Part shown: positions 32,160 through 37,417 of the stretch, in pieces
Layout of the letters: each line of letters opens with the position of its first letter
Numbering within the stretch: position 1 is the stretch's first letter
Origin: Pyrinomonadaceae bacterium
Lineage (GTDB): Bacteria; Acidobacteriota; Blastocatellia; Pyrinomonadales; Pyrinomonadaceae
Reading direction: 5' to 3'
Length of the DNA: 64,000 bases
NCBI GenBank assembly: GCA_041747575.1
Contig: JBGTEX010000034.1
Span: 1,560 to 65,559 of the forward strand
Notes under the pieces: generated by a model
Databases searched by the model: none
The model's input: the letters and a program-made list of their open reading frames with translations, nothing else
What the model was told of the DNA's origin: nothing
Translations under genes and position numbers: made by a program

Positions 32160-32582
32160 TTAAGCAGGGCATACGATATGGGCATGGCGAACAGCCAGCT
32201 GCCATTTGCCGTTTCGTTTCATCCACATATTTGTATAACGGCGTTTGACGACCTTGCCTCCGTCAGCAATTGTTAGGGTCTCGTGCCCGATAACGACCAC
32301 CATATCCTTATAAAAAAGAAATTCCTCAGGTTCGCGGACAAACGATTCGTAATTGATCGTTCCGTTTCGAATCAGTTCAAAGATGCCTTCACGTTCTTTG
32401 ACGATCTTATTCGTAGGGTGATTTGTGACCGCCGCTGTGTCTTTTTTTAGTATCGCCTCGGCGTGGACAAGATCGAGCTTTCTGATCTGTTCTTTCAGTT
32501 TGTCATTTGTTTTTGTCATCTGCGCCGCTGTCAAAATCGCAGAAGCGAGCAGAATAAATACAAAAAACACGCATTTTCTCAT
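32160..32582 (-). CDS. DUF4440/SnoaL-like (NTF2 fold) secreted protein
   Basis: This is the C-terminal 140 aa of the 352-aa track ORF, starting MRKCVFFVFILLASAILTAAQ (ATG at 32582). ...RRYTNMWMKRNGKWQLAVRHAH is typical of DUF4440. Confidence 0.65.
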   Translation of the reverse strand: MRKCVFFVFILLASAILTAAQMTKTNDKLKEQIRKLDLVHAEAILKKDTAAVTNHPTNKIVKEREGIFELIRNGTINYESFVREPEEFLFYKDMVVVIGHETLTIADGGKVVKRRYTNMWMKRNGKWQLAVRHAHIVCPA

Positions 32583-32652
32583 TGCTGTTCTCCTTTTTAC
32601 GTCAACGTCGTGGGTTTTACATATAATAGACGTTTCAACGGAGAAAAAGAAA

Positions 32653-33078
32653 ATGAACAAAACCGGGAAATCTGAACAAACAAACAAAGCCGTACCGACG
32701 GCGCTCCGATACTGGTTCGTGTTGCATTTCGCGGTCGATATGATCGTCGCCGTCCCTTTGTTTTTTGCCCCTAACGAAGTGCTTGGGCTGTTTGGCTGGA
32801 TAGAGATCGATCCGTTCGCCGCCCGTTTGACCGCCGCCGCCCTCTTCGGCATCGGCCTCGAATCGCTCCTCGGCCGCAACGCGAAACGCGAATCATTCAA
32901 CGGAATGCTCCAATTAAAAATAATCTGGTCCGCCTTCGCCACCATCGGCCTGGCCTGGTCAACCCTCGAAGGCAACCTAAAATACCCAATAATCGGCTGG
33001 CTCCTAACCGGAGTCTTCGCCGCGTTCAATGCACTGTGGTGGTATTGCCTCCTACGGCTTAGGAGCGACCGAACTTGA
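32653..33078 (+). CDS. hypothetical membrane protein
   Basis: Internal ATG at 32653 of track ORF 32425..33078, following GGAG. MNKTGKSEQTNKAVPTALRYWFVLHFAVDMIVAVPLFF..., with about 4 hydrophobic helices. Confidence 0.5.
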   Translation: MNKTGKSEQTNKAVPTALRYWFVLHFAVDMIVAVPLFFAPNEVLGLFGWIEIDPFAARLTAAALFGIGLESLLGRNAKRESFNGMLQLKIIWSAFATIGLAWSTLEGNLKYPIIGWLLTGVFAAFNALWWYCLLRLRSDRT

Positions 33079-33304
33079 ACCCCGTGCCGCTGTCTTGCAC
33101 CCCATGAGGCGTTAAGGATTTGCTGAAACGGATGGATAAGCGTGAATAAATTCAAAAGTCTTTTTTTCAATTTTATAGTAACTTGAATGCAAGCAGTAAG
33201 TGCAACTCTTGAATTCAAGTAATTTCCGATTTCAGATGACTTGAAAATATAAAACTCGAATTTTATATGCAGTTACGAAAGTAAACCTGCCTTATGAGCA
33301 AAGT

Positions 33305-33636
33305 TCTGAAATTTGAAATTTGAAATTTGAAATCTGAAATTTGAAAATTCGAATCTGCAATCTGAAATCTGAAATTCAAAATCTGAAATCTTAAATCTGA
33401 AATTAGAAATCTTAAATTTGAAATTTGAAATCTGAAATTCGAATCTGCAATCTGAAATTCGAAATCTGAAATCTGAAATCTGAAATCTTAGATCTCAAAT
33501 CTCAAATCTCAAATCTCAAATCTGAAATCTGAACTCTGAACTCTGAAATCTGGAATCTTAAATCTTAAATTCAAAATCTGCAATCTGAAATCTGCAATCT
33601 GAAAATCTGAAATCTGAAATCTGAAATTCGAAATTA
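33305..33636. repeat. heptanucleotide tandem array, consensus GAAATCT (~47 units, degenerate)
   Basis: Read directly from the sequence. Units are GAAATCT, GAAATTT, GCAATCT, TAAATCT and CAAATCT (the last within a CTCAAAT run). The 7-nt period is out of codon phase, so track ORF 33509..33715 is an artefact. Confidence 0.9.
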
Positions 33637-33680
33637 TTGAACAGTAGAAAAAGAAATTAACAGTAGAAAAAAGGGACCAA

Positions 33681-33742
33681 TTAGTGAAGATCAATACAAA
33701 TTTAGTGAAGATCAATACAAATTAGTGAATATGAATACAAAT
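33681..33742. repeat. three tandem 20-21-bp iteron-like repeats TTAGTGAAGATCAATACAAAT
   Basis: Copies at 33681..33701 and 33702..33721 are identical apart from 1 nt of length. The third, at 33722..33742 (TTAGTGAATATGAATACAAAT), has 2 substitutions. They are preceded by a duplicated AACAGTAGAAAAA (33640 and 33659). Confidence 0.8.
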
Positions 33743-33876
33743 TTCAGAACAAATCGCTGAACTAAACTTAATTGAATTCAAAGTTATGATATGAGGCCGC
33801 TGACGCTGGGCGGATTCTGACTTTTTTGCAAAATAATATACACTCACACCGGATTTATTTTTCTCTTTAAATTTTT

Positions 33877-35442
33877 ATGCTATTTCTTTCGCAGTCGGCG
33901 ACCGTTTATGGGATTGATGCGTTGATCGTCGATATTGAGGTCAATTTGCAGCCGATACCAAACGAGGCTGACATAATACCGCCATTTACGATTGTCGGGC
34001 TGCCGGATACGGCGATTCGCGAATCGAAGGAGCGCGTCCGGGCGGCGATCACAAACAGCAAATATTTTTTTCCGTTTCACAAGACGACGATAAATCTGGC
34101 CCCGGCGGATGTACGAAAAGAGGGCGCGGCGTTTGATCTGCCGATCGCTCTTGGGATACTCGGTGCGGCCGGTGATCTGGGGATCGACGATGCGGGCGCT
34201 ACGCTGAGCGTCGGCGAATTATCGCTCGACGGGCGTGTGCGGCCCGTCCGCGGTGCGTTGTCGATAGCGCTAAAGGCACGCGAGATCGGGATAAAAAATG
34301 TTCTACTGCCCGAAGAAAATGCGACCGAGGCGGCGGTTGTAAACGACATTAACATCTTTCCGGTCAAGGATTTGCGGACGGCGGCGGAGCTCGTCTGCGA
34401 TCTGAAAACGGGTAACGCTACGCGCGTTCCGCCGCTCAGGCTCGATATTTCGGAGCTAAAATCGAGAGAGAATAAATACCGCGTCGATTTTAACGAGGTG
34501 CGCGGCCAGCGGACCGCCAAGCGGGCGCTCGAGGTGGCGAGCGCCGGCGGGCATAACATCCTGTTTATCGGGCCGCCGGGTTCGGGAAAGACGATGCTCG
34601 CCAAGCGTCTGCCGACGATCCTGCCGCCGCTCGAATTTGAAGAGGCCATCGACATAACAAAAATCCATTCGGTCGCCGGGCTGACCGGCAAGACCGGGTT
34701 GATCGTCGAACGCCCATTTAAATCGCCGCACCATACAGTATCGCAGGCGGGCTTGATCGGCGGAGGTTCGATGCCAAAACCGGGCGAGGTTTCGCTCGCA
34801 CATCTCGGCGTTTTGTTTCTGGATGAGCTGCCCGAATTTGACCGCAGCGTGCTCGAAGTCCTGCGGCAGCCGATGGAGGACAAGACGGTCACCATCTCAA
34901 GGGCGGCGACTTCGCTCACGTTTCCGTCAAATTTTACGCTTGTCGCGTCGATGAACCCGTGTCCGTGCGGATATTTTGGCAGCCAGCGCGAATGCAAATG
35001 CTCGCCGATGCAGATACAGCGGTATGTGGGCAAAATTTCGGGGCCGCTCATGGATCGGATCGACATCCACATCGATGTGCCGGCCGTAAAATTTAAGGAG
35101 CTGCGCGGGCGCGGCGTTGAAGAAAGTGACAGTTCGGAAACTATCCGCGAACGCGTTATAAGAGCACGCGCGATACAGATCGCTCGGCTGGGCGGCGAAG
35201 GCGTGTTTTCAAATTCTGCAATGTCGTCAAAAAATATCCGCGAATTCTGCGGCCTTGACGCCGAGAGCGAAGACCTGCTCGAAAAAGCGATGCAGCGCCA
35301 GGGCCTGTCGGCCCGCGCCCACGACCGCATTTTAAAGGTTTCGCGGACCATCGCCGATATGGCCGCCAGCCGCGATATTCAGCCATCCCACATCAGCGAA
35401 GCCATAAATTACCGCTCGCTCGACCGTAATTACTGGGCGTGA
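33877..35442 (+). CDS. comM: YifB/ComM family Mg-chelatase-like AAA+ ATPase
   Basis: 521 aa. Lon-like N-terminal domain, then [24 protein letters not shown] and a C-terminal ChlI-type region. Confidence 0.9.
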
Positions 35443-35689: not shown

Positions 35690-37417
35690 ATGAAAATCGT
35701 TGATAAGATTGGTTTTGCATTCGCTTTGGCGGCTCTTTTTCTGACTGTGTTTCCGGTTCAGAGTCCGGTGTTTTCCCTTGACTTTCGGTCCGGAGCACAG
35801 ACGCCACGACCACGAACCCTTGAAAAAAATACGCCGACCCCGACGCCGGTTCCGTCCGCCACGCCGACCCCGGTTCCGTCCGCCACGCCGACCCCGGTGC
35901 CGGCCGTCACGCCGACGCAGGTTCCGTCCTTCACGCCGACACCTGTTCCGGTTCAGACGCTTGACGAATTGCGTTCAAAAATTCGGCAGCGGTTGTTTGC
36001 ACCCGAAGTTCGACGCGGGCGGGTCGGGATAAAGATCGTTTCGCTAAATTCGGGAAAGGTCGTTTTTGAGACCGATTCCGAAAAATACTTTATGCCGGCG
36101 TCGAATATGAAAAATTTTACGGTCGCAGCCGCGCTCGAACGGCTCGGCCCCGATTTTCGGTTTGTAACCGGTGTTTATGCCGATGCGCTGCCCGATTCGA
36201 CGGGTACGATAAAGGGCGATCTTCGAATTTTTGGCCGCGGCGACATTTCGATATCGACCGCTTTTTTTGGGACCTCGCCAACCGATCCTGAAACTTATTT
36301 CAAGGGCGTCGACCGGTTAGCCGAACGAATAATTGCGGCCGGGGTCAAACGAATCGACGGCAGCATAGTCGGCGACGAAAGTTATTTTAAGGGCTTTGCG
36401 ATTCCCGGTACGTGGGAATGGGACGACCTGCAATTCTATTACGGAGCCGAGATTTCGGCCTTGCCGATAAATGACAACGCGGTCGATATCGCCGTCTCGC
36501 CGGCCGGTCTGGGCGAGCCTTGCGTGGCCGGCATTTCGCCGGCAAATACGATCATCCGCGTCATAAATCTATGTACGACAACCGGTGCGTCGATTGCCCG
36601 GAATCTGAGCGTCGTAAAACAAATAGACAGGAATGTCGTTGAAATTTCTGGCACAATTCCGGTCGGCGGTTTAGCATTTAAAGGTACGGTGGCGGTCACA
36701 CGTCCGTCTGCTCTATTTGTCGCCCTTTTGAAACAGCGTTTGGAACAAAAAGGCGTGGCCATCACCGGCGGTTCGCGTGTGCTACCCGCAAATATAAAAG
36801 CCGAAGCGTCACAGATCGAAATTACAAAGCTCGAATCGCCGCCCCTCTCCCTGATTGCCGCCAAAACGATGAAACCGAGCCAGAATATGTACACCGAAAC
36901 GCTTCTCTGGACACTCGGCGAATACGCCCGCGCACGGCTTGACGTACCAACCGTCGGTCCGGATATGAGAGCAGTTCCGGACAGTTCACAACTGGGTATA
37001 AGCGAGGTGAAATATTTTCTGTCAAAGATCGGCGTACCCGAGGACGGTATAATCCAGTATGACGGCAGCGGCCTCTCGCGTCACGACCTGGTCACACCGG
37101 CGGCGGTGGTGACGCTCTACACCTATATGGCCACGCTCAGCCCGTATAAACAGGCCTGGCGTGACAGCCTTACTATCGGAGGTGTGGATGGCACATTAGC
37201 AAGAAGATTTACGGGAACGGCCGCCGCCGGCAATTTTCGCGGCAAAACGGGAACGATAGATCAGGTCTCGGCACTTTCCGGTTATATGACGACCGCCGCC
37301 GGCGAACAGCTTGTCGTCTCGATCCTGATAAACGGTGTCGCCCAGACCCGTACACGCGTCTCGCTCGCCGACGATATCGTCATCGCACTTGCAAATTTTA
37401 ACGGAAAGATCGATTAG
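35690..37417 (+). CDS. dacB: D-alanyl-D-alanine carboxypeptidase/endopeptidase (PBP4, peptidase S13)
   Basis: Track ORF 35684..37417 starts at GTG; ATG at 35690. Signal peptide, Pro/Thr-rich linker, SxxK motif PASNMKNFT and GKTGTI (KTG). Confidence 0.85.
   Translation: MKIVDKIGFAFALAALFLTVFPVQSPVFSLDFRSGAQTPRPRTLEKNTPTPTPVPSATPTPVPSATPTPVPAVTPTQVPSFTPTPVPVQTLDELRSKIRQRLFAPEVRRGRVGIKIVSLNSGKVVFETDSEKYFMPASNMKNFTVAAALERLGPDFRFVTGVYADALPDSTGTIKGDLRIFGRGDISISTAFFGTSPTDPETYFKGVDRLAERIIAAGVKRIDGSIVGDESYFKGFAIPGTWEWDDLQFYYGAEISALPINDNAVDIAVSPAGLGEPCVAGISPANTIIRVINLCTTTGASIARNLSVVKQIDRNVVEISGTIPVGGLAFKGTVAVTRPSALFVALLKQRLEQKGVAITGGSRVLPANIKAEASQIEITKLESPPLSLIAAKTMKPSQNMYTETLLWTLGEYARARLDVPTVGPDMRAVPDSSQLGISEVKYFLSKIGVPEDGIIQYDGSGLSRHDLVTPAAVVTLYTYMATLSPYKQAWRDSLTIGGVDGTLARRFTGTAAAGNFRGKTGTIDQVSALSGYMTTAAGEQLVVSILINGVAQTRTRVSLADDIVIALANFNGKID
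35831..35956 (+). repeat. five tandem ~24-bp coding repeats (TPTPVPSA-type linker) inside dacB
   Basis: ACGCCGACCCCGGTTCCGTCCGCC and variants, repeated head to tail. They encode TPTPTPVPSATPTPVPSATPTPVPAVTPTQVPSFTPTPVP. Confidence 0.8.

Follow-up and report, generated by a model that had tools for sequence, protein, structure and literature searches.

Tandem arrays of seven-nucleotide units are known from the short tandemly repeated repetitive (STRR) sequences of heterocystous cyanobacteria, which were reportedly described by Mazel et al. in 1990 with the units CCCCAGT (STRR1), TTGGTCA (STRR2) and CAACAGT (STRR3). The present work concerns a heptanucleotide array, consensus GAAATCT, that lies upstream of the gene comM in a Pyrinomonadaceae bacterium (phylum Acidobacteriota), within a 64,000-nt stretch of contig JBGTEX010000034.1 that was analysed as a whole and is hereafter called the window; positions given without a contig or locus name refer to it. 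The genome is the metagenome-assembled genome (MAG) of a soil acidobacterium, with 3.52 Mb in 67 contigs and 49.5% GC; comparison with ComM orthologues assigns it to Pyrinomonadaceae, class Blastocatellia. Our results suggest that the array is probably a slippage-expanded, gene-less member of a family of heptamer-repeat elements of this lineage, and that it has no role specific to comM.

Heptamers are over-represented in many bacteria, according to Rehm 2015 (PMC4692102), where Mrazek 2007 is cited, and to MacGregor 2015 (PMC4679880). The repeats GGGAATC of Xanthomonas and GGGGAYT of Nostoc favour gaps flanked by aligned open reading frames (ORFs), are depleted between divergent ORFs and are mostly transcribed; they are found near stop codons and often form convergent inverted pairs (PMC4692102). 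Heptamers also accompany a gene in Coxiella burnetii's intervening sequence (IVS), where an S23p (PF05635) ORF stands between inverted terminal repeats and is preceded by (GACAGAT)3-4 repeats of strain-variable number, the first of which is the site of cleavage by RNase III (PMC4990558). PF05635 is homologous to Avd, a protein of diversity-generating retroelements (PMC10053308).

The array and its heptamer family

The central feature of this work is the following:

33305..33636, + strand: heptamer tandem array of 46 units, consensus GAAATCT (Tandem Repeats Finder (TRF), unit parse and internal-repeat check)

On the window, TRF reports a period of 7 with 46.1 copies, 81% matches, 1% indels and a score of 357 at 33305-33627, and an indel-aware parse starting at 33308 resolves 46 units (44 of 7 nt, one of 6 nt and one of 8 nt), in agreement with the preliminary description of about 47 contiguous degenerate heptamers. 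The consensus is found exactly in 14 units, followed by GAAATTT (5), GCAATCT (4), CAAATCT (4) and GAAATTC (3); the units named earlier were correct apart from their register, CTCAAAT being CAAATCT in another phase. Positions 3-5 of the unit, the AAT core, are near-invariant (43, 42 and 43 of 44) and positions 1 and 6 are variable, with a chi-square p of 2e-4 for this conservation that is inflated by duplicated units. The two-unit probe GAAATCTGAAATCT, allowing at most 1 mismatch, gives 17 matches in the window, all of them within the array, when 0.1 is expected from shuffles. The array had been proposed to be non-coding and indeed sits in an intergenic gap of 798 bp between two genes of the same (+) strand, the upstream ORF ending at 33078 and comM starting at 33877; GC content is 25-30% in the gap and array versus about 57% in the flanking genes.

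The internal structure of the array carries traces of its growth. The edit distance between adjacent units is 1.36 versus 1.56 after permutation (p 0.02), identical units cluster in blocks (GAAATTT x3, GAAATCT x4, CAAATCT x4, GAACTCT x2), and a segment some 26-30 nt long is repeated at a distance of about 98 nt. These homogeneous sub-blocks and higher-order duplications, together with a roughly 10-fold difference in arm length between the congeneric cassettes described below, suggest that the array grew through slippage during replication or through unequal exchange, with point mutations arising afterwards. Pure tracts do not exceed 4 units, and any slippage today should accordingly be modest.

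A period scan of the whole genome identified 94 period-7 arrays, which together cover 4.7 kb, as well as 52 of period 6, 7 of period 8, 6 of period 9 and 1 of period 10; TRF listed 87 rows of period 7 and 56 of period 14. The array of the window is the third largest period-7 array of the genome. The other long arrays reported by TRF are:

C63:6682-7050: heptamer array, 51 copies
C51:125467-125789: heptamer array, 46 copies
C63:7598-7896: heptamer array, 42 copies
C33:14652-14883: heptamer array, 33 copies

Units fall into two super-families, NAAATYN (AAAATCC in 21 arrays, AAATTTC in 11, AAAATCT in 5, and others) and a family with a CAGT core (CAGTGGT, GGGCAGT) that recalls cyanobacterial STRR1 and STRR3. 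When genes are called by codon score, 58 of 90 arrays fall in intergenic DNA. After clustered arrays are merged, 32 of the 38 array-bearing gaps lie between co-directional genes, where 67-69% would be expected (p 0.014-0.027), and an array comes within 20 nt of the upstream stop in 9 gaps and within 20 nt of the downstream start in 13. The arrays of the genome have no strand bias relative to gene direction (29 vs 21), their flanks contain no conserved motif, only more heptamer units being enriched there, and no functional theme was found among the genes beside the other long arrays. Inverted hairpin pairs number about seven. One of them, at C39:27469-27553, is a heptamer-arm hairpin, (GGATTTT)n-loop-(AAAATCC)n, that takes up the spacer separating two tRNA genes; a transcribed, processed spacer can thus accommodate such hairpins. 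A further site, C62:125996-126259, consists of a heptamer-arm hairpin module of about 89 bp repeated in tandem about 2.5 times, that is, a higher-order repeat of hairpins.

The preference for period 7 extends to the relatives. For comparison we used 160 orthologous comM loci with 62-92% identity, 80 from genomes and 80 from metagenomes. The 80 genome loci, from 80 species (668 kb), contain 34 period-7 arrays vs 3 of period 8, and the metagenome loci 12 vs 0. Period-7 arrays reach 7 per 100 kb in G064, a genome of the same family, and 11 and 27 per 80 kb in G016 and G101, two genomes of the same class in which none of period 8 was found; in 20 other families of the phylum there are 16 per 400 kb, vs 5 of period 8. 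The statement that long heptamer arrays are uncommon outside cyanobacteria can therefore not be upheld, as period 7 prevails over period 8 by 94 to 7 in this genome and dominates across Pyrinomonadaceae and Blastocatellia. In the literature searched, we found no report of heptamer arrays in Acidobacteriota. Preferred units differ species by species. The search of the genome and its relatives for further (GAAATCT)n arrays, which had been suggested earlier, was successful: (GAAATCT)3 with at most 2 mismatches is present in 102 of 151 Pyrinomonadaceae genomes (45 of 60 genera), a single genome having as many as about 130 matches, and the reversed-pattern control is mostly zero. Among the family genomes, this unit family (NAAATYT) is never at conserved positions.

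In the class-level relative G016, heptamer arrays form the arms of a repeated composite element (loci L227-L237, e.g. L231 1350-1650; also L108 14435-14627 and 16958-17170, and L109 18908-19091). It consists, in this order, of (AGTAGAA)4-12, some 20 nt, the invariant core TTAAATTTGCAACCA, some 22 nt that include a small GC hairpin, and (CTTTCTA)4-13. Allowing 1 mismatch at most, the core matches 20 times in G016, and both arms accompany each of the 11 exact copies retrieved; it is absent from the genome of the window.

PF05635 cassettes and heptamer arms

The two long arrays of contig C63 flank a small gene that Pfam assigns to PF05635, the 23S-rRNA intervening-sequence protein, a four-helix bundle, and both are among the three largest arrays of the window's unit family outside the window. 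The genome contains 9 PF05635 genes or remnants, 7 of which lie within 45 nt of a heptamer array, versus 1.5% of random intervals and 2% of other small genes (P 6e-12). An eighth locus (C20:20088-20520) has inverted octamer arms, (GCGAAGTT)3 and (AACTTCGT)3(AACTCCGA)2, so that arm units are not always of 7 nt. At the loci on C20, C35, C39 and C56 the two arms are inverse complements of each other; the gene on C63 stands between two direct arrays, of 51 and 42 units.

This association is also found in other genomes. PF05635 is multi-copy in 39 of 41 family genomes. A set of 29 PF05635 loci, taken from different genomes, gave 33 period-7 arrays in the 15.1 kb lying within 200 nt of the ORF and 15 in the 53.7 kb of outer flanks, a density 7.8 times higher close to the gene (P 5e-12). 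At 22 of these loci there are arms on at least one side and at 10 on both sides (e.g. GGAGTCT...AGACTCC), the two-sided arms being inverse complements in the pairs inspected. The subfamily to which the C63 gene belongs, with proteins of about 181 aa, has arms of the window's unit family. Its orthologue in G077 has 78% nucleotide identity, another context (after guaA) and only 4+3 units, so that congeneric cassettes differ in arm length from 7 units to 93 on C63. More distant orthologues in G158, G136 and G154 (56-64% amino acid identity) have AGATTTC, GAAATCT or CAAATTT arrays on both sides. As judged from these sequences, the unit family of the comM array makes up the arms of one PF05635 cassette subfamily, in at least five genera.

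On C63, the PF05635 gene stands between the methylase gene mod and the ResIII gene res, within a Type III-like restriction-modification operon (C63:4288-10580). A decayed duplicate of this arrangement is found at C44:46400-47700, with the 3' end of mod, arrays, PF05635 codons ~130-175 and a res-like 5' end; it is a deletion derivative on the way to bare arrays. The C63 gene itself includes about four in-frame arm heptamers (AAATTTCAGATCTGAAATTTCAAATTTG) at C63:7346-7385 (codons 89-101), encoding FSNFRSEISNL, and G077 has such heptamers at the same place (L268 1980-2011). We rejected the possibility that the deletion at C44 ended at this in-gene stretch, as its junction is near codon 130. The in-gene heptamers account for spurious tblastn matches of the C63 protein to the array of the window; in the gap 33079-33876, this query gave only low-complexity matches (E >=0.04) and no PF05635 remnant was found. 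The genome encodes RNase III (on C43). No reverse transcriptase (PF00078) match was obtained in it, and a reverse-transcriptase origin was rejected on this ground.

The gap upstream of comM

Besides the array, the gap and the two genes that border it comprise the following features:

32425..33078, + strand: upstream co-directional ORF of 217 aa, no Pfam match, modest coding score (ORF list, Pfam, codon score)
33181..33220, + strand: orphan terminal repeat of a multi-copy insertion sequence (IS)-like element, within a small palindrome, with the core TGCAAGCAGTAAGTGCAACTCTT at 33188-33210 (genome motif search)
33221..33237, + strand: inverse-oriented mini-arm of 17 nt, ATTTCCG ATTTCAG AT, about 2.4 units (inverted-repeat scan)
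33247..33268, no strand: AT palindrome with perfect arms ATATAAAACTC/GAATTTTATAT, between mini-arm and array (inverted-repeat scan, pair I21)
33640..33672, + strand: motif AACAGTAGAAAAA, twice, directly after the array (sequence reading)
33681..33744, + strand: 21-bp unit (TTAGTGAAGATCAATACAAAT), three times in tandem (TRF period 21, 3.1 copies, 90% match)
33817..33844, + strand: promoter-like block, CTGACT, 16 nt, TACACT, 33 nt before the comM ATG (alignment of 12 comM upstream regions)
33877..35442, + strand: comM, Mg-chelatase-like AAA+ ATPase of the YifB/ComM family (Pfam)

The assignment of comM is based on matches to PF01078 (2e-96), PF13541 (6.5e-42) and PF13335 (1.8e-32), i.e. the Mg_chelatase, ChlI and Mg_chelatase_C domains. 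When 12 upstream regions were aligned, near-invariant columns were confined to the ~60 nt before the comM ATG, and neither the array nor the three 21-bp units aligned. Since this short conserved part includes the promoter-like block, comM most likely has its own proximal promoter, which would be located about 180 nt downstream of the array, whose end is 240 nt from the ATG. A promoter scan returned promoter-like sites at chance level and a terminator scan found none. With Rfam, nothing in the region reached the gathering score, the sub-threshold hits being eukaryotic miRNA models that match low-complexity sequence.

None of the 160 relatives' loci has an array upstream of comM, and some have short arrays at other places. 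In one metagenome relative with 77% ComM identity (L179 4104-4336), a 184-bp GAAATTT/GAAATCA array stands directly 3' of comM; its units are of the same family as those of the array of the window, but its site is not homologous. The neighbours of comM differ on both sides in all relatives, and the 217-aa ORF of the window adjoins comM in none of them. No contig was found to encode exactly the same ComM or upstream-ORF protein, the best metagenome relative having 89% ComM identity.

Several of the small features are peculiar to this site. The AACAGTAGAAAAA duplication has no further copy in the genome or in the relatives, and the 21-bp unit is restricted to a single site of the genome in a region that fails to align with relatives. 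The mini-arm lies 67 nt 5' of the array and is 88-94% complementary to several of its registers; it may be a vestige of an inverted-pair architecture. The IS-end motif of 30 nt (CTTGAATTCAAGCAGTAAGTGCAACTCTT) has 8 other sites in the genome (C8:112-151, C62:112-150, C25:54729, C63:41731, C11:32288, C10:118966, C67:24528 and C44:17533), six of them about 141 nt from contig ends and running into shared repeat sequence; at least two multi-copy IS-like elements end in this motif, and the bin lacks their bodies. Elsewhere in the window, a GC-rich tandem repeat of 24 bp x4.9 (35832-35950) is in frame within a D-Ala-D-Ala carboxypeptidase (Peptidase_S13) gene, where it presumably encodes a Pro/Thr-rich linker.

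The physical properties of the array were predicted with wedge and nearest-neighbour parameters, for curvature and stability respectively. In the wedge model, the ratio of end-to-end distance to contour length is 0.93 for the array, 1.0 for pure repeats and 0.34 for a phased A6-tract control. Phasing at 7 bp cancels over 21 bp; the array is predicted to be straight, and its proposed action as a curved element does not find support. It is at the same time the least stable duplex stretch of about 300 bp in the window (-1.16 vs -1.43 kcal/mol per step). At the RNA level, the sense transcript (GAAAUCU)n is predicted to be unstructured (z -0.57) and the antisense to form G-U-rich pairing between sub-blocks (z -5.0); the gap as a whole is not unusually structured (z +0.39), the mini-arm being the only inverse partner of the array.

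Origin of the array and comparison with known repeats

The view of the array as an expanded, gene-less member of a lineage-wide repeat family would make it either a solitary or expanded arm left by a PF05635 cassette, or an empty array of the kind that is occupied on C63. There is no indication of a role specific to comM: at this site the array is peculiar to its lineage, the conserved promoter region lies downstream of it, and it belongs to a set of long arrays whose neighbouring genes share no theme. It would probably act as a spacer of 330 bp that is straight, AT-rich and easy to melt and, if it were read through from the upstream gene, its RNA would be expected to be unstructured and A/U-rich. 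Several points weigh against this interpretation. No PF05635 remnant is present in the comM gap, so that it is the unit family and the size class that point to descent from a cassette. The inverse mini-arm is just 17 nt long, and the co-directional bias is only moderately significant after clustered arrays are collapsed. Most arrays of the GAAATCT family are gene-less, and A/T-rich heptamers could expand independently. Moreover, the conservation of the AAT core and the occurrence of the unit family in 45 genera might point to selection acting on some function that depends on the sequence.

The absence of a cassette remnant also agrees with a plain neutral origin, in which an AT-rich heptamer present by chance in a dispensable spacer served as the seed and was expanded by slippage into a long simple sequence repeat (SSR) unrelated to PF05635 cassettes, period 7 being favoured by polymerase slippage, as Mrazek et al. 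2007 are cited as having proposed. The over-representation of heptamers in many bacteria (PMC4692102), the degenerate and locally homogenised state of the array, the lack of a reverse transcriptase match in the genome and the fact that about 85% of its arrays are not beside a PF05635 gene go in the same direction. We nevertheless regard this origin as unlikely, since the unit family is common to 102 of the 151 family genomes, one PF05635 subfamily has arms made specifically of this unit in at least five genera, and the three largest arrays of the same family outside the window include both of those that bracket the C63 gene. At the other extreme, (NAAATYT)n arrays might be the propagation substrate of a mobile PF05635 cassette (Avd-like, four-helix-bundle), the cassette or its protein promoting array expansion, with the comM array as a landing pad or footprint. 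The cassette would then move between arrays of its own unit family by recombination, because of which the C63 gene would have come to lie inside a split array of 93 units. Such a scheme seems to us rather improbable on present evidence; if true, it would provide a mechanistic origin for the decades-old puzzle of STRR and heptamer repeats.

A functional cis-element for comM or the upstream gene would be either a binding lattice (on DNA or on A/U-rich RNA, for which S1, Csp, Hfq or a nucleoid protein could be candidates) or a phase-variable spacer tuning comM. The near-invariant AAT core between variable positions 1 and 6, a sense RNA predicted to be unstructured as expected of a single-strand binding platform, the position between co-directional genes with no terminator predicted between them, and the proposal of such roles for TAACTGA repeats by MacGregor 2015 (PMC4679880) are compatible with it. 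The array is however found at none of the 160 relatives' comM loci and ends some 180 nt upstream of the conserved promoter-like block; genome-wide, arrays show no strand bias and the genes beside the long ones have nothing in common, and a longest pure run of 4 units makes for poor slippage. A cis-acting role is therefore improbable in our opinion. The earlier suggestion of a slippage-prone contingency tract appears unlikely for the same reasons of purity and distance, and a contingency locus is not supported, the tract being 81% matched instead of near-perfect and lying outside any ORF, the inferred promoter and the ATG-proximal leader. As to the suggested unwinding element, the low duplex stability was confirmed, but nothing indicates an origin. 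The region could be read as a replication origin or plasmid-type iteron region, with an AT-rich unwinding element beside iterons, given that three tandem 21-bp repeats adjoin the least stable duplex of the window. Yet dnaA is on contig C14, the gap contains no DnaA box and the count of boxes over the window is at chance level, no switch of the GC skew is seen at 33 kb, the vicinity lacks rep and par genes, and the 21-bp unit is neither found elsewhere in the genome nor conserved. This reading, which has almost no credibility left, was rejected upon the negative DnaA-box, dnaA-location and GC-skew checks. An assembly artefact, i.e. a collapsed, expanded or chimeric low-complexity tract, had to be considered as the genome is a short-read MAG whose contigs break about 141 nt into multi-copy IS, implying de Bruijn assembly at k=141. 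The longest exact repeat inside 33250-33700 is however 26 bp, and the path through the array is therefore unique at any k >26. Furthermore, no contig end of the MAG is 7-periodic or ends in a heptamer array, and independent assemblies of relatives contain arrays of the GAAATCT unit family (4-23 copies, including on a 3.84-Mb contig) and, on an 853-kb contig, comparable heptamer arrays. An artefact is thus very improbable.

Taken alone, and apart from its great length, the array is an ordinary case of a class of repeats that has been known since 1990, and it extends a dense heptamer-repeat architecture to Pyrinomonadaceae and Blastocatellia. The in-genome test goes further by tying heptamer repeats physically to PF05635 cassettes, with a unit family shared by five genera. 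This association concerns the repeat class and not the comM locus, and it was foreshadowed by the work on the Coxiella IVS. If the tie is causal, it might offer an explanation for the heptamer repeats of cyanobacteria, Xanthomonas and many other phyla. In practical terms, such arrays and adjoining IS ends are spots of mis-assembly or breaks in short-read MAGs, and non-coding repeats of this sort are to be expected in intergenic annotation.

Compared with phase-variable contingency loci such as the promoters of hmw in Haemophilus influenzae (PMC8262952), which also have 7-nt tandem units upstream of a gene, the array differs in purity (81% matched here, near-perfect there) and in position, as it lies 5' of the promoter-like block whereas contingency tracts are within the promoter or 5'-UTR. 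The ORF-bearing 23S rRNA IVS of Coxiella burnetii and Leptospira (Warrier et al. 2016, PMC4990558) resembles the PF05635 genes bracketed by heptamer arms in this genome; the array of the window, unlike the IVS, has no PF05635 ORF or remnant, is outside any rRNA gene and has only the 17-nt inverse partner. The TAACTGA repeats of Beggiatoaceae, Cyanobacteria and Bacteroidetes (PMC4679880) are likewise intergenic direct heptamers, occasionally in very long arrays of up to 43 copies that are not at the same site in close relatives, and in the register AATCTGA the GAAATCT unit matches TAACTGA at 5 of 7 positions. The repeats of 'Maribeggiatoa' are, in contrast, mostly forward and just before start codons, whereas here 240 nt separate the array from the ATG and no strand bias is seen among the arrays.

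With the GGGAATC repeats of Xanthomonas and the GGGGAYT repeats of Nostoc PCC 7120, the arrays of this genome share the over-representation of period 7, a dispersed and mostly intergenic distribution with enrichment in gaps between aligned ORFs and depletion in those between divergent ORFs, a frequent proximity to stops and starts, the frequent formation of convergent inverted pairs and a length that varies between relatives. They differ in lineage and in the AT-rich unit GAAATCT, for which no G-quadruplex is possible because of this composition, and the array has 46 units when 4 are preferred and 26 are the maximum there.

The comparison with STRR-type arrays drawn in the preliminary description proved well chosen, as the features of the period-7 class are found here. 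Tandem heptamers in many dispersed copies, with unit families but not positions common to genera, are shared with the STRR of heterocystous cyanobacteria, and other arrays of this genome have CAGT-core units (CAGTGGT, GGGCAGT) like STRR1 and STRR3. The phylum is different and GAAATCT is none of STRR1-3; since STRR are defined by cyanobacterial unit sequences, the array is STRR-like but not a strict member. To conclude, the kind of repeat is already known, as STRR and heptameric long SSRs, and the Acidobacteriota setting and the length of 46 units are new examples of it.

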